Below are positions 1 through 5,056 of a DNA stretch of 5,056 bases, piece by piece. Source of the DNA: a virus (taxonomy: Duplodnaviria > Heunggongvirae > Uroviricota > Caudoviricetes); the IMG/VR virus record IMGVR_UViG_2529293223_000003, one strand, 5' to 3'. The position numbers and the translations under genes are program-made. The notes beneath the pieces were generated by a model. The model searched no databases, was not told the origin of the DNA, and saw only the letters and a list, made by a program, of their open reading frames with translations. Positions within the stretch are counted from its first letter, which is position 1. Each line of letters opens with the position of its first letter.

Positions 1-7
1 AAATAGA

Positions 8-1030
8 ATGGCATCAGAAGAGCTAATAATGAGCAGAAAAACCCAACGTTACTCTAAAGAGTTCAAAGCCGAAGCTGTCAGAACGGTTCTTGAAAATCAA
101 CTTTCGATCAGTGAAGGCGCTTCCCGATTATCCCTTCCTGAAGGCACTTTAGGACAATGGGTTACCGCCGCCAGAAAAGGGCTCGGTACTCCTGGTTCCC
201 GCACGGTGGCTGAACTGGAATCTGAAATTCTGCAACTGCGTAAGGCGTTAAATGAAGCTCGCCTTGAGCGAGATATATTAAAAAAAAGCAACAGCGTATT
301 TTGCACAGGAGTCGCTGAAAAATACGCGTTAATCGAACAATGGCGACAACAATTTCCTATTGAAGCGATGTGTCAGGTATTTGGTGTATCCAGGAGCGGT
401 TATTACAACTGGGTACAGCATGAACCCTCAGACAGAAAACAAAGTGATGAGCGGCTAAAACTGGAGATTAAGGTGGCACATATCCGCACTCGCGAAACAT
501 ATGGAACCCGGCGGCTCCAGACGGAGCTGGCAGAGAATGGCATCATCGTTGGTCGTGACCGACTGGCACGTCTTCGTAAGGAGCTAAGGCTACGCTGTAA
601 GCAGGAACGCAAGTTCAGAGCGACTACGAACTCGAACCACAATCTGCCAGTTGCGCCAAATCTGCTGAACCAGACGTTCGCTCCTACAGCACCAAATCAG
701 GTCTGGGTGGCGGACCTGACGTATGTTGCCACACAGGAGGGATGGTTGTACCTCGCTGGCATCAAAGATGTTTATACGTGCGAAATTGTCGGCTACGCCA
801 TGGGAGAGCGCATGACAAAAGAGCTGACAGGTAAAGCCCTGTTTATGGCGCTCAGGAGCCAGCGCCCACCTGCCGGGCTAATCCACCACTCTGATCGAGG
901 TTCACAGTACTGCGCATACGATTACCGGGTCATACAGGAGCAGTTTGGTCTGAAAACATCAATGTCGCGTAAAGGTAACTGTTACGACAACGCTCCGATG
1001 GAAAGCTTCTGGGGAACGCTGAAAAAATGA
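8..1030 (+). CDS. IS3-family transposase, OrfA-OrfB fused in one continuous frame (340 codons); likely true start is the ATG at 29 (MSRKTQRYSKEF...); C-terminus frameshifted
   Basis: Six-frame ORF 8..1030. An A8 run at 280-287 places orfA and orfB in one frame. With one fewer A the upstream frame reads ...LKKATAYFAQESLKNTR then TAA, a typical 100-aa OrfA ending, so this ORF corresponds to the OrfAB fusion normally made by -1 ribosomal frameshifting on A AAA AAA. The ORF ends at TGA 1028-1030 immediately after an A6 run. Confidence 0.8.
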   Translation: MASEELIMSRKTQRYSKEFKAEAVRTVLENQLSISEGASRLSLPEGTLGQWVTAARKGLGTPGSRTVAELESEILQLRKALNEARLERDILKKSNSVFCTGVAEKYALIEQWRQQFPIEAMCQVFGVSRSGYYNWVQHEPSDRKQSDERLKLEIKVAHIRTRETYGTRRLQTELAENGIIVGRDRLARLRKELRLRCKQERKFRATTNSNHNLPVAPNLLNQTFAPTAPNQVWVADLTYVATQEGWLYLAGIKDVYTCEIVGYAMGERMTKELTGKALFMALRSQRPPAGLIHHSDRGSQYCAYDYRVIQEQFGLKTSMSRKGNCYDNAPMESFWGTLKK

Positions 1031-1118
1031 GAGCCTGAGCCACTATCGTTTTAATAACCGGGATGAAGCCATCTCAGTAATACGGGAATACATTGAGATT
1101 TTCTACAATCGTCAGCGT
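1026..1118 (+). pseudogene. Out-of-frame C-terminal fragment of the IS3-family orfB (NESLSHYRFNNRDEAISVIREYIEIFYNRQR), cut by the Mu insertion
   Basis: Translating the +1 frame from 1026 gives 31 codons with the conserved IS3-family C-terminal pattern (LKNE...F..R.EA...I.EYIE.FYN..R), ending exactly at the Mu terminus. The frame break is at the A6 run 1022-1027. Confidence 0.7.
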
Positions 1119-1200
1119 TGAAGCGGCGCACGAAAAACGCGAAAGCGTTTCACGATAAATGCGAAAACTTTAGCTTTCGCGCTTCAAATGAAACAGCAGT
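1119..1200. mobile_element. Phage Mu right end (attR) with MuA-binding sites R1, R2 and inverted R3; Mu terminus at 1119 (5'-TG...)
   Basis: 1119-1168 reads TGAAGCGGCGCACGAAAAACGCGAAAGCGTTTCACGATAAATGCGAAAAC, which I recognise as the canonical 50-bp Mu R-end. 1172-1198 holds an inverted copy of the MuA consensus (reverse complement TGTTTCATTTGAAGCGCGAAAG). Confidence 0.85.
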
Positions 1201-1233
1201 ATTAATTACCGCTTTTTATTCATTACATGGGGA

Positions 1234-1959
1234 TCACTTAGGGTATGGCTGAACCTTGAATAGTTTGGTATTTAGCCGCTTCCTTGCTCGCTTGTTCAGG
1301 AATCTGATGTAGCGATACTGATTAAATTTGTGCACCACGGCACGCTCCTTATTAGCTCGCAAATACTCGCCTCGTTGCCCTCCGCGCTTAATCGCGTTCA
1401 TCGTTATCTCGTGATACCACTCACCATCCAGCTCGTAGAACGTGCTTTCATGGCTGCCAATAAAATCAAAATTCGACGCCTGATACACAACGCCTGCGAG
1501 TCCGCAGCGTTCGTCAGCAAAGGACTGAACCCACTCCACTGACGGATACAGTAATCTGATAACTTTCAGCGCGTAGCTGATGGCCCGTGATTCAGAGTTG
1601 CGGGGCATGTCGTCGTGTAGCCACATGCGATTCAACTCCATATAGCCCCGGTTATCCGTTTCAAGCACGACACGACGACCTGAGTTGGGGTTAAGGGCAT
1701 ATCCCCACTGGAGAACGCCAACCAGATCACGCCCGCTGAATACTCCCAGGTGAAGGTAAGAGTTATTCACAAAACGGCGGGAATAGTGCTTTGTCTGAAT
1801 GATTGTGCGGGCCAGCCAGCAGGATATGGTTTCAACGCGCAGCTCCTTTGAACCATAGCCAACAATCTGGCCTTCATACTCAATAACGCACGGTTTCGTC
1901 AGAATGCGTGATTTCTTCTCTTTTCCCACAATGTTTCTCCGTGGGATGCTCGCAGACAT
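1234..1959 (-). CDS. mom: Mom, phage Mu DNA-modification protein (adenine N6 carbamoylmethyl/acetamido modification, anti-restriction)
   Basis: ORF 1234..1959 (241 codons from the ATG at 1959). A shorter 231-codon product from the GTG at 1929 is possible. Sits immediately downstream of com with overlapping frames, as in the Mu com-mom operon, next to the Mu right end. Confidence 0.85.
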
Positions 1960-2180: not shown

Positions 2181-2359
2181 TTTTCTATATGCGTTCCTTT
2201 TTGAAGGCGCTTTAAAGCACGTTTTAATCCCGGTCGGTCTGTCCTTGTTCCGCTTAATTTATCTTCAAATATTTGTTCACATCCTGCACAAACAAGAGCG
2301 TTTCGTTGCAGGTCTGTATTCTGGTCATTTGTTGATACCCTTACATAGCCAATCAGCAC
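2162..2359 (-). pseudogene. gin: gin serine DNA invertase, internally deleted in frame: 65-codon remnant with N-terminal 55 residues and C-terminal about 9 residues
   Basis: GTG start at 2359. MLIGYVRVSTNDQNTDLQRNALVCAGCEQIFEDKLSGTRTDRPGLKRALKRLQKG matches the N-terminus of Gin/Pin/Hin/Cin-type invertases, with the catalytic Ser at residue 9. The ORF then reads T-HIENDDRIN and stops. Full-length invertases are about 185-195 aa, and the gix-to-com interval has no room for another one. Junction is around 2189-2197. Confidence 0.8.
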
Positions 2360-2413: not shown

Positions 2414-2439
2414 TTATCTAAAACCTCGGTTTACAGGAA
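2414..2439. other. gix recombination (crossover) site, the gin-proximal boundary of the invertible G segment
   Basis: TTATCTAAAACCTCGGTTTACAGGAA is a 26-bp imperfect palindrome of the hix/gix/cix type (TT.....AAACC / GGTTT.....AA half-sites around a 2-bp core), 55 bp upstream of the gin start. The tail-fibre reading frame opens immediately inside it. Confidence 0.7.
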
Positions 2440-3384
2440 ACGGTAAATCAGGCTTCTGGCGCATTACAGAAAAACCAGAACGGCGCAGATATTCCAGGAA
2501 AAGATACCTTCACCAAAAATATTGGGGCCTGCCGCGCATATAGCGCATGGGTGGATATTGGTGGCGATAGTCAGGTCTGGACAACTGCGCAATTTATTTC
2601 GTGGCTGGAGAGTCAGGGGGCATTTAACCATCCTTACTGGATGTGCAAAGGCTCATGGGCTTATGCAAACAATAAGGTCATTACAGATACAGGTTGCGGA
2701 AATATTTGTCTTGCAGGTGCTGTGGTGGAAGTTACTGGCACTCGCGGCGCAATGACCATACGTGTTACTACACCGAGTACGTCCAGCGGTGGCGGAATTA
2801 CTAACGCTCAATTCACTTATATTAATCATGGCAATGCTTATGCTCCTGGCTGGCGACGAGACTACAACACGAAAAACCAGCAGCCTGCATTTGCTTTAGG
2901 GCAAACAGGAAATACCGTCGGAAACGACAAAGCCGTTGGCTGGAACTGGAATAGCGGTGTTTATGATGCAGATATCAGCGGTGCATCAACATTAATCCTC
3001 CACTTCAATAAGAATACGGGGAGCTGCCCTGCTGTACAGTTCCGTGTGAATTATAAGAACGGCGGTATTTTTTATCGTTCAGCGCGTGATGGTTATGGAT
3101 TTGAGGCTGGCTGGTCAGAGTTTTACACCACAACACGCAAGCCATCAGCGAGAGATGTTGGCGCATATACGCAGGCAGAATGTAACTCAAGGTTTATTAC
3201 AGGTATTCGCCTTGGTGGTCTGTCATCTGTTCGGACATGGAATGGTCCCGGCTGGTCTGACAGGTCAGGTTATGTTGTTACCGGTTCCGTTAACTCAAAC
3301 AGAGATGAACTAATTGATACAACTCAGGCAAGGCCAGTTCAGTATTGCATTAATGGGACGTGGTATAACGCGGGGAGTATTTAA
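2422..3384 (+). CDS. S': Tail-fibre variable C-terminal part, gin-proximal cassette (probably S'v, silent in this orientation); no start codon of its own
   Basis: The frame is open from the stop at 2419-2421 (inside gix) through to 3384. The track's GTG at 2551 has no Shine-Dalgarno. C-terminus ...PVQYCINGTWYNAGSI parallels the other cassette. The S' versus S label is inferred from partner sizes (U' 177 aa, U 175 aa, from memory). Confidence 0.7.
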   Translation, partial: NLGLQETVNQASGALQKNQNGADIPGKDTFTKNIGACRAYSAWVDIGGDSQVWTTAQFISWLESQGAFNHPYWMCKGSWAYANNKVITDTGCGNICLAGAVVEVTGTRGAMTIRVTTPSTSSGGGITNAQFTYINHGNAYAPGWRRDYNTKNQQPAFALGQTGNTVGNDKAVGWNWNSGVYDADISGASTLILHFNKNTGSCPAVQFRVNYKNGGIFYRSARDGYGFEAGWSEFYTTTRKPSARDVGAYTQAECNSRFITGIRLGGLSSVRTWNGPGWSDRSGYVVTGSVNSNRDELIDTTQARPVQYCINGTWYNAGSI

Positions 3385-3386
3385 CG

Positions 3387-3920
3387 ATGATGCACTTAAA
3401 AAACATTTCTGCTGGTAATCCTGAAACAAAAGAGCAATACCAGCTAACGAAGCAATTTAACATCAAATGGCTTTATACAGAGGATGGAAAAAACTGGTAT
3501 GAGGAACAAAAGAATTTCCAGTCTGATACGTTGAAAATGGTCTATGACCACAACGGCGTTATTATTTGTATTGAAAAGGATGTTTCAGCAATTAATCCGG
3601 AAGGCGCAAGCGTCGTTGAGGTTCCTGATATTACAGCAAATCGCCGGGCTGATATTTCAGGTAAATGGATGTTCAAAGATGGCGTAGTGATAAAGCGAAC
3701 TTATACCGGGGAAGAGCAGAGGCAACAGGCGGAAAATGAAAAGCAAAGCCTGCTACAGCTCGTCAGGGATAAAACCCAGCTATGGGACTCACAGCTACGG
3801 CTGGGTATCATTTCCGACGAGAATAAACAAAAATTAACCGAGTGGATGCTCTATGCGCAGAAAGTCGAATCCACAGACACCTCCAGCCTGTCAGTAACGT
3901 TTCCCGAACAACCTGAATGA
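3387..3920 (+). CDS. U': Tail-fibre assembly protein (Tfa family), 177 aa, probably U'
   Basis: ORF 3387..3920, MMHLKNISAGNPETKEQYQLTK..., starting 2 nt after the tail-fibre stop with a GGGGAG Shine-Dalgarno. N-terminal about 110 residues are paralogous to the minus-strand Tfa, the C-terminus diverges. Confidence 0.85.
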   Translation: MMHLKNISAGNPETKEQYQLTKQFNIKWLYTEDGKNWYEEQKNFQSDTLKMVYDHNGVIICIEKDVSAINPEGASVVEVPDITANRRADISGKWMFKDGVVIKRTYTGEEQRQQAENEKQSLLQLVRDKTQLWDSQLRLGIISDENKQKLTEWMLYAQKVESTDTSSLSVTFPEQPE

Positions 3921-3923
3921 GAC

Positions 3924-3950
3924 AAGGCCCGCTATCGGGCCTTAATTTTT
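3924..3950 (+). terminator. Intrinsic-terminator-like hairpin between the convergent tfa genes (stem AAGGCCCG / CGGGCCTT, loop CTAT, then AATTTTT)
   Basis: 8-bp GC-rich stem at 3924-3931 and 3936-3943 followed by a T5 run on the plus strand. The U-tract is weaker on the minus strand, so bidirectional function is uncertain. Confidence 0.5.
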
Positions 3951-4476
3951 ACTCTGGTTTTTGTGGCCATTCTGGCTTTGCCGTATCCACACGGCTGACC
4001 AGAACACTGTAGCGTTCCCATGACTCCAGTCGTGCGCGTTCCTCATCTGTTGCCATATTCAGCCTGACAGAGCGCTCCAGCGGCTGAATAACGCTTTCTG
4101 CTTCGGAAAGTAACGCAGCTTTTTGTAATTCGGCCTGTTGTTGCTGTTCGTCTGCCGTATAAATCCGTTTAACCACAGCTCCGTCCTTAAACATCCATTT
4201 ACCTGAGTCATCAGCACGTCGGTTGGCTGTTATATCGGGGATTTCAACGACGCTAAAACCTTCAGGATTAAGCGTGGAGGCATCTTTAGTGACGGCGACA
4301 ATAATATTATTTTCGTCGTAAACAATCTTTATTGTGTCCGGCTGAAAGTTCTTCACTTCCTCATACCAGTTTTTATCGTCTTCAGAGTAAAGCCAGATGA
4401 CTCCGTGTTTCTTTGTCAGCTCATACTGTTCTGGTGTTTTAGCGTTACCCGCTTTTATATTCTTCAGGTGCATCAT
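3949..4476 (-). CDS. U: Tail-fibre assembly protein (Tfa family), 175 aa, probably U
   Basis: ORF 3949..4509 trimmed to the [11 protein letters not shown]... start at 4476, which mirrors the plus-strand tfa start and lies 1 nt after the upstream tail-fibre stop (4478-4480). The 11 extra N-terminal codons in the track ORF overlap the tail-fibre gene and are unlikely to be real. Confidence 0.85.
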
Positions 4477-4477
4477 A

Positions 4478-5056
4478 TTAAATACTCGCCACATTATACC
4501 AAGTGCCATTTATATACTTTTGCACTGGCCTGTAATGAACGCCTGCAATATTATCGGCAGAGTTTTTTCCGGTATCCTGTACGTTAATCCCCGTCAGTAC
4601 ATAGCCTGACGGGCACTGGAAATTCCATGTTTGCCAGTTGTTCACTCCATAATATTGCTGTGAACCAAGCCGGACATCTTTCACATATCTGGAATCAAAA
4701 TTGCCATAGTTGCCTGGAATAACTTGCGAGCCGCAAAGCCAGTTACCGTTATTATCCATGTACGCCTGACCATCGGTGCCATTGGCTGTCCTTGAGTTAT
4801 TAATCATGTAGATGCCAAATTGCTTATTCCCCAGCCCACCAATTACGAATTTACGGTCGGTATGGTCCTGGCGAAGCAATGCCTGCGCACCATCGTTGGA
4901 TACCGCATTACGGCCCAGAATAACATTCTGGTCACGCATATGAATCCACATGCCGGTACTACTGTTAATTGCAAAACGGTTTGCAAATATATCTCCTGTA
5001 ACAACCAGACCATGCCCCATGCTTATCCGGCCAGTTCTGAGATTAAGCGTAAAGGG
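4478..5056 (-). CDS. S: Tail-fibre variable C-terminal part, distal cassette (probably Sv, the expressed one if fused to a constant part outside the window); partial, continues past the window end
   Basis: Minus-strand frame is open from the window edge (5056) to the stop at 4478-4480. C-terminus ...[16 protein letters not shown]. The ATG at 5020 is internal. Confidence 0.75.

Follow-up and report, generated by a model that had tools for sequence, protein, structure and literature searches.

Invertible tail-fibre segments are known from several close relatives of the DNA analysed here, a stretch of 5,056 nucleotides (the window). As the mechanism is proposed for this locus, a 3.1-kb G segment with the convergent cassettes Sv–U and S′v–U′ between inverted 26-bp gix sites would act as a host-range switch: the variable part facing the constant 5′ part of S, which lies outside the segment, would be fused to that constant part and made from the late transcript. 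Escherichia phage Mu (NC_000929) has the same gene order (mom, com, gin, gixR, S′v, U′, U, Sv, gixL, Sc) and the same 26-bp site (25/26) with its TC core. The constant 5′ part of S falls outside the window and is 99% identical to Mu in sibling loci; U′, S′v and U are 96.6%, 94.7% and 90.9% identical. Mu differs in that the window's gin is without codons 56–183 and its Sv is a mosaic.

The closest phage is SfMu (NC_027382; Jakhetia and Verma 2015, PMC4406740), with 95.6% identity in G at the DNA level and, at the protein level, 99.4% in S′v and 95.3% in the part of Sv that is present. SfMu, however, has an intact 197-aa Gin, was deposited with S′/U′ joined to the constant part, the orientation opposite to that of the window, and carries a C-to-G change beside the core of the Sc-side gix that is absent in the window's lineage. 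No change in its host range was observed by its authors, who suspected that the segment inverts poorly (PMC4406740).

Three other systems are instructive. In laboratory gin-minus Mu supplied with Pin of e14, no invertase accompanies the intact sites, and only the related trans enzyme is described as bringing about inversion; PinE of e14 is reported to invert Mu G and to complement gin in references cited in PMC12529663. The allele in the window, in contrast, is a natural one, for which complementation is presumed. The Shigella B segment with pinB was reportedly found by Tominaga et al. in 1991 to be closely like G in size and organisation, with a functional pinB and a constant region outside B unlike that of Mu. 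Its bixR site is the exact reverse complement of the window's gixR, with the same core dinucleotide (site table of PMC3241671). The C segment of P1/P7, with cin, has homologous S, U, U′ and S′ cassettes (87–90% DNA identity) but a different constant part, replicon and segment size; P1 S′ is directed at the O antigen of Shigella flexneri, according to the literature.

The window is identical over the whole contig to AFGE01000074.1 (GCA_000211975.2), whose proteins are named Shigella boydii. Judged by its sequence, it comes from a transposable S. boydii prophage of the SfMu type (genus Muvirus), of which it forms the right end and which is inserted into a copy of IS600; the remainder of the prophage is presumably present in the same genome. 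From left to right the order is IS600 fragment, Mu right end, mom, com, gin remnant, gixR, S′v–U′ (plus strand) and U–Sv (minus strand), and every feature of the first-pass annotation was found where it had been placed. The stretch from mom to S follows the Mu reference record colinearly, in the G(+) layout, and the earlier call of G(+), with S/U facing the constant part, is thereby upheld. The IS600-like piece is context outside the switch; it matches IS copies in loci L003 and L005 at about 99% and is colinear with locus L013, three homopolymer-length indels apart. For mom, gene callers also take a 231-aa form (1234–1929), and Pfam Mom is assigned to genes homologous to it.

Table. Features of the window, numbered from its first base.
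Feature	Position	Strand	Remarks
IS600-like (IS3 family) element, left 1118 nt	1..1118	+	orfB interrupted by prophage end
Mu-type right end (TGAAGCGGCGCACGAAAAACGCG...)	1119..1233		Mu match begins at 1119, corresponding to the final base of the Mu record
mom	1234..1959	-	long ORF, 241 aa; 98.8% aa identity to Mu Mom
com, 62 aa	1880..2068	-	96.8% aa identity to Mu Com
gin remnant, 65 aa	2162..2359	-	codons 56–183 (384 nt) deleted in frame; junction about 2195/2196
Retained 5′ part of gin, presumed Fis-dependent recombinational enhancer site	2196..2359		near-identity to Mu
gixR, recombination site beside gin	2414..2439		TC crossover dinucleotide at 2426–2427
28-nt perfect arm of inverted repeat shared with distal gix	2420..2447		both ends compared in L013
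S′v, variable part of alternative fibre, silent	2422..3384	+	94.7% aa identity to Mu S′v, 99.4% to SfMu gp49
U′, tail-fibre assembly protein, 177 aa	3387..3920	+	96.6% to Mu U′; Pfam Caudo_TAP; silent in present orientation
GC-rich hairpin, then T run	3924..3943	+	between convergent U′ and U
U, tail-fibre assembly protein, 175 aa	3949..4476	-	90.9% to Mu U; expressed orientation
Sv, C-terminal 192 codons	4478..5056	-	frame open through last window base

The two cassettes are convergent, each consisting of a variable part without a start of its own and an assembly protein, and they are 91–97% identical to Mu except at the Sv tip. The cassette beside gin had been described as silent for want of a start codon, and the reading frame agrees: S′v is open throughout, the first ATG, GTG or TTG is the GTG at 2551, and no sigma-70-like site was found on the plus strand of this cassette. 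The labels S/U and S′/U′ had been assigned tentatively from remembered protein lengths. Those lengths agree with the Mu reference annotation (U, 528 nt and 175 aa; U′, 534 nt and 177 aa), and alignment to Mu identifies the proximal cassette as the S′/U′ orthologue and the distal one as the S/U orthologue; the reverse assignment was not seen, distal U being the orthologue of Mu U. Among solved structures the best match to U is 5YVQ chain B, Mu protein U. The distal cassette, predicted to continue into the constant tail-fibre part, does so in loci L013 and L014, where it crosses gixL to join the constant part of S, with baseplate genes beyond.

The segment is bounded by two inverted 26-bp sites, one in the window and the second in the sibling loci. 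The site gixR, TTATCTAAAACCTCGGTTTACAGGAA at 2414–2439, is identical to Mu gix at 25 of 26 positions, and no other gix is present in the window at three or fewer mismatches (0 expected in 200 shuffles). Extension past position 5056 in L013 and L014, which are near-identical to the window, places an intact distal gix about 433 nt beyond its end, followed by the constant S region, so that G spans 3101 bp between the outer gix edges. This second site, gixL, is intact in L013, L014, L015 and L010. With one mismatch allowed, the inverted repeat extends for 34 nt from 2414 (33/34 matched). A base in the outer half-site marks each gix, T on the gin side and C on the Sc side, and keeps its flank in both orientations of G, as would be expected for exchange inside the repeat.

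The first-pass annotation was right that gin is inactivated. Residues 1–55 of the remnant are 100% identical to residues 1–55 of Mu Gin and residues 57–65 match Mu Gin 185–193; the product covers only positions 2–63 of the 145 in the Pfam Resolvase profile, and the HTH_7 domain is absent. On these grounds the cis invertase is dead, and no functional serine invertase gene lies beside the segment. The 65-aa gin is a natural in-frame deletion allele, found in hundreds of Shigella-type assemblies (the exact allele is on 623 contigs). The deletion junction is common to L013, L014 and L015, with the 65-aa gene called in L014 and L015. A 33-mer across the junction had no exact match in GTDB species representatives or in JGI metagenomes, and among the best matches listed for 5426 complete E. 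coli genomes the full-length matches to the gin region were all about 755 nt (intact gin), the deletion appearing in none.

The first 164 nt of gin are kept, almost identical to Mu, and Fis sites mapped in Mu lie, by the approximate distance given in the literature, roughly 550 bp upstream from the start of mom, a position within this stretch. A working Fis enhancer may be retained, to the extent that this approximate published distance holds.

The first-pass annotation considered the segment probably locked in the orientation seen. Comparison with sibling loci contradicts this. L013 and L014 are 99.64% identical to the window; L013 is colinear with it over the full 5056 nt, including the IS600 junction, and carries a full tail module with both gix sites intact. 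In both loci the distal frame is fused to the constant part in an intact 510-aa S. In L015, which has the same 65-aa gin allele and 100% identity in the right arm and in the interior of G, the segment is nonetheless inverted and the fusion is an intact 488-aa S′. Across L013, L014 and L015 there are 0 mismatches in 1305 positions of the right arm and 0 in 3073 of the G interior; L015 alone is inverted. Prophages that are identical in sequence thus carry G in both orientations, and the shared deletion with no mismatches implies at least one flip after gin was deleted. L010 also combines the gin deletion and both gix sites with the inverted orientation.

A single orientation among deletion descendants, as expected of a locked segment, is confined to the remnants found at cit in S. 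flexneri, which have also lost the outer half of gixR; elsewhere the same junction occurs with both orientations. Ten loci had been considered as independent cases of the opposite orientation, and this was rejected: nine of the ten are such remnants and, having lost that half-site, are uninformative on invertibility. In the window the silent cassette keeps its frames fully open, whereas these remnants are in decay. A contig consisting of G only (L017), whose two ends fall at the base from which the flanks diverge, was likewise set aside as proof of a mixed population, because a short-k-mer assembler or a paralogous copy could give the same result.

The locus is probably a Mu-type switch in which the cis gin has been destroyed, which can still be inverted by a serine invertase acting in trans, and which has flipped at least once since the deletion. 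It is also possible, though we consider it unlikely, that the segment is truly locked in a strain without a compatible invertase, where G(+) would be a frozen record of the fibre of the infecting virion and the flips in L015 and L010 would have taken place outside this strain, for instance in a host carrying an enzyme of the Pin type or during mixed infection with a gin+ phage. Such a reading accords with the dead cis gin and with the continuity of the window contig through gixR, likewise seen in L013 to L015; a gin+ relative, L021, which has the closest intact SfMu-type Gin, is instead a small palindromic contig in which G has gin on either side. It accords also with the orientation census, in which three of the four readable assemblies of the exact lineage are G(+) and one is inverted, a count held to four because the orientation-specific silent ORFs (277 and 328 aa) are absent from the protein collection searched. 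Yet a flip after the deletion is still required somewhere, so that the element as such is not locked even under this reading; neither gix site is damaged, no decay is seen in the silent cassette, and invertases of the Pin family abound in Escherichia and Shigella (6885 proteins, counted as cluster representatives, at E ≤ 1e-40).

Inversion in L015 might have been achieved with no site-specific invertase, by RecA-dependent homologous recombination between the 34-bp inverted repeats. The match between the repeats (28 perfect, 33/34 overall) would permit this, and the outer-half polymorphism fits any exchange inside the repeat equally. RecA recombines efficiently only above a certain length, and repeats of about 34 bp lie close to that minimum, so that such events should occur very seldom; L015, however, has not diverged at all from L013 and L014 in 4.4 kb. 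Moreover, the gix sites are perfect substrates of a known, interchangeable enzyme family. We regard the RecA route as very improbable. That misassembly of the window or of L015 produced the difference in orientation is scarcely credible: inverted repeats can mislead assemblers, as the G-only L017 and the palindromic L021 illustrate, but this repeat is only 34 nt, below the length of any read type, L013, L014 and L015 have unique sequence flanking both gix sites on both sides, and both fused frames (510 and 488 aa) are intact.

The DNA substrate for inversion in trans is still whole: gixR lies in the window, gixL is present in the siblings, and the presumed Fis-enhancer piece is kept. In the window's assembly the S/U cassette faces the constant part, the Mu G(+) arrangement. 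A dead gin together with a whole substrate would make the segment stable in the short term and still invertible in trans. The flip was probably brought about by a Pin-family invertase acting in trans, and the data point in the direction of the earlier caveat, that the orientation was fixed unless such an enzyme is present. Candidate enzymes would be of the Pin, PinB or Cin type, from another prophage or a plasmid, or could come from a gin+ helper phage. Because the window contig, L013, L014 and L015 are unbroken through the gix sites, one orientation must be dominant in each culture, unlike in a typical gin+ lysogen, so that flipping must be rare or may be confined to other hosts. The flip in L015 may have occurred during passage of the phage rather than in a lysogen like that of the window. 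At least two insertion sites carry the same allele, one at cit/dpiA and one in a copy of IS600 next to flgJ, which suggests that the phage lineage was mobile after the deletion. More tentatively, the gin-deletion allele could make the SfMu-like switch flip only in cells with a compatible Pin-family invertase, with the choice of fibre set by the resident prophages and plasmids of the host.

An E. coli K-12-type host range had been attributed to the expressed cassette, and this attribution fails. The portion of Sv inside the window has 66% identity to Mu S, compared with 95% (95.3%) to SfMu gp52 and 83% to a P2-like fibre. Identity to Mu S is 43%, with 6 gap columns, over the final 60 residues of Sv and 39% over its residues 244–318. 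A Mu-like receptor-binding tip, as would go with recognition of the K-12 LPS core, is not found. Because Sv is a mosaic with respect to Mu S, the receptor specificity of Mu G(+) is not transferable. From its sequence, the fibre to be displayed is of the SfMu gp52 type, and the K-12 LPS core is not to be assumed as its receptor. No host is known for this type of fibre (PMC4406740).

The locus represents ordinary biology, a modestly new variant of the Mu-type switch. The main value of the analysis is that two wrong annotations, a frozen segment and a K-12 range, are averted: a dead adjoining invertase is no proof that an invertible segment is frozen, and the Mu label G(+) confers no K-12 host range on a fibre with a different tip. 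The 65-aa gin allele provides a simple marker for tracing SfMu-type prophages and their remnants, and the gin deletion may explain the failure of gin–mom PCR on otherwise complete SfMu-like prophages in PMC4406740. If confirmed, the locus would be a natural Shigella case of trans-dependence, in which a phage switches host range by means of another element's recombinase.

By its sequence the segment is a G segment of the Mu type, carried by a prophage resembling SfMu, and it has the structural features of such a segment, the Fis enhancer being a presumed one, save a working adjacent invertase. The features described in the first-pass annotation lie where it had placed them, as judged from the ORF map and from the gix site, which is the sole match in the window at three or fewer mismatches (0 expected by chance). 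Looking up the 175-aa protein by exact sequence retrieved the whole contig AFGE01000074.1 of GCA_000211975.2 (L016), 100% identical to the window over 5056 nt; its U and U' proteins (EGI88665 and EGI88664) bear the name Shigella boydii at NCBI. The Mu-type right end sits within orfB of the IS600 copy (junction 1118/1119). A 340-aa "fused" transposase ORF at 8-1030 results from three homopolymer-length differences between the window and its near-identical sibling locus L013 (G1 versus G2 near 21, A8 versus A7 near 281-288, A6 versus A5 near 1022-1027), which look like sequencing errors of the older assembly or slippage at a programmed frameshift site. The start of mom is overlapped by com, as in Mu; mom has an open frame of 241 codons, which is called as a 231-aa form in some assemblies and as a 241-aa form in others.

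Features of the window, mapped from the ORF list and the sequence and set against phage records
Feature	Coordinates	Strand	Remarks
IS600-like element, left part	1-1118		
Mu-type right end	1119-1233		match to Mu starts exactly at last base of Mu
mom	1234-1959	minus	
com	1880-2068	minus	
gin remnant	2162-2359	minus	65 aa
gix site	2414-2439		
Variable fibre part (S'v)	2422-3384	plus	no start codon ahead of GTG at 2551
Assembly protein (U')	3387-3920	plus	177 aa
GC-rich hairpin and T run	3924-3943		
Assembly protein (U)	3949-4476	minus	175 aa
Fibre frame (Sv)	4478-5056	minus	open up to final base of window

The cassette labels, S/U distal and S'/U' proximal, had been given tentatively from protein lengths. 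Since the Mu annotation has U at 175 aa and U' at 177 aa, those lengths were right, and the assignment stands on firmer evidence. Protein identity of the proximal S'v is 94.7% with Mu S'v and 99.4% with SfMu gp49; U' and Mu U' share 96.6%, and the distal U and Mu U share 90.9%. The window is also colinear with the reference Mu record, annotated as G(+), through mom, gin, S'v, U', and U and into S. No sigma-70-like site was found upstream of the proximal cassette on the plus strand of the window, which fits with that cassette being silent.

The constant fibre part and the distal gix, both expected past position 5056, are present in the siblings. The entire window is colinear at 99.64%, the IS600/Mu junction included, with L013, a contig of 3.27 Mb from GCA_002968245.1; on the IS side L013 runs on to flgJ, flgK, and flgL. 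Its distal frame extends into a 510-aa S, preceded by baseplate and tail genes, and its distal gix (TTATCCAAAACCTCGGTTTACAGGAA) is inverted and undamaged. A second sibling, L014, likewise has the constant part and an intact inverted site. The G segment spans 3101 bp in both, outer edge to outer edge, and the L013 span places the distal gix at window-equivalent 5489-5514. We infer that the constant part and distal gix also occur in the window's own genome. All 13 differences in G between the window and the sibling loci L013, L014, and L015 fall in S'v and the start of U' (2496-3449), and at most of these sites the window has the base of SfMu, of the more distant relative L010, and of the remnants at the cit locus; the clustering suggests a recombination patch in the sibling group.

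Inactivation of the adjacent gin is borne out. The remnant consists of Gin residues 1-55 (100% identical to Mu), a Thr, and the final nine residues, so that codons 56-183 are lost in frame. Of the 145 positions in the Resolvase profile the remnant covers only 2-63, and it lacks the HTH_7 DNA-binding domain of intact SfMu Gin; a protein so predicted cannot be active. The exact 65-aa allele occurs on 623 contigs named Shigella flexneri. None of the matches listed from 5426 complete E. coli genomes has the deletion, all carrying an intact gin, and it is absent from species-representative genomes and JGI metagenomes. The same junction is seen at two insertion sites, the cit/dpiA locus (as in L003) and IS600 beside flgJ (L013 and the window), with right arms about 1.2% different. 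The phage either remained mobile once gin was lost, or the allele spread through recombination. In PMC4406740, the 1.5-kb gin-mom PCR product was missing from six S. flexneri strains whose SfMu-like prophage seemed complete; it may be speculated that a similar deletion was responsible, if a primer lay within the missing 384 nt.

The first-pass annotation had taken G to be probably locked by the loss of gin, unless an invertase acted in trans, and the idea of a locked segment does not survive comparison within the lineage in which both gix sites are intact (L013, L014, and L015; also L010). The three siblings share the deletion junction and are mutually identical over the right arm (1305/1305 positions) and the G interior (3073/3073). 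L013 and L014 have G as in the window, whereas in L015 it is inverted, and fusion with the constant part there gives an intact S' of 488 aa. L010 has the same gin allele, intact sites, and an inverted G. Descendants of the deletion thus do not keep to the single orientation of a locked segment. Because the molecule on which a deletion arises has a single orientation, and both orientations are found, at least one inversion must have followed it, recently enough that no substitution has accumulated. In both orientations the T and the C that distinguish the outer half-sites remain on their own flanks, as would be expected for exchange within the repeat.

In each of the ten loci initially retrieved by way of the gin remnant, G is opposite to the window. 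Nine (L003-L009, L011, and L012) are degraded remnants adjoining dpiA and the citrate-lyase genes, in which an 11-bp deletion takes the outer half of gixR, the site beside gin (e.g., L003 about 9917-9950). In L003 and L005, S'v is truncated by IS600 and Sv has a 768-bp insertion, presumably IS1, flanked by a 9-bp repeat. L004 has lost G entirely. These remnants are truly frozen and are uninformative on the invertibility of the window.

The substrate for inversion appears complete: neither gix site is damaged, and gin keeps its first 164 nt. Fis sites have been mapped within the coding sequence of gin, about 550 bp upstream from where mom starts (PMC3378877), a position that, measured on the Mu record, lands inside the retained piece; enhancers of this invertase family are about 65 bp long and able to act at a distance (PMC3798978). 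SfMu has a C-to-G change beside the core of its Sc-side gix (L002 3001-3026, TTATCCAAAACGTCGG...), as its authors reported (PMC4406740); at that position the S. boydii lineage, unlike SfMu, keeps the sequence of Mu without the mutation. Invertases of the family are interchangeable, e14 PinE being cited in PMC12529663 as inverting Mu G and complementing gin. When reverse-complemented, the window gixR matches bixR, a site of the Shigella PinB system, exactly (PMC3241671), and the core dinucleotide is the same. Given a complete substrate, interchangeable enzymes, and this identity of sites, the best explanation would be that a Pin-type invertase acting in trans, or a gin+ helper phage, inverts G. 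The flip seen in L015 may have occurred in another host.

Frequent flipping is another matter. The window contig and all three siblings traverse gix sites without a break, which speaks against it. L021 (WSKO01000058.1, 4744 nt), which is SfMu-like and gin+, is a palindromic contig with com and intact gin at both ends of G, an assembly product such as a culture of mixed orientation would be expected to give. L017 (LSGD01000114.1, 3088 nt) consists of the G segment and nothing else, matches L013 with 0 mismatches, and stops on both sides just short of the base at which the gin-side and Sc-side flanks begin to differ; its ends could reflect both orientations among the reads or merely a short k-mer.

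The E. coli K-12-type host range proposed for the displayed fibre is not upheld. For the 192 Sv residues in the window, identity is 66% with Mu S, 62-63% with P1 S, and 83% with a P2-like fibre, as against 95% with SfMu gp52. Along the L013 S protein, identity to Mu S is 99% in the constant part (residues 1-171), 96% in the first part of Sv (172-243), 39% over 244-318, 77% over 319-450, and 43%, with 6 gap columns, at the tip (451-510). According to PMC4406740, SfMu binds the S. flexneri O antigen through its S'-type fibre; the opposite SfMu orientation yielded no host, and Mu itself forms no plaques on S. flexneri. Since Sv is of the gp52 type and that SfMu orientation has no host found, no receptor can be assigned to the displayed fibre.

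The rescue of gin-minus phages by Pin is textbook biology. The deletion allele itself goes without mention in the SfMu paper (PMC4406740). A fair summary is that the G segment is stable in culture, though not locked across the history of the lineage.
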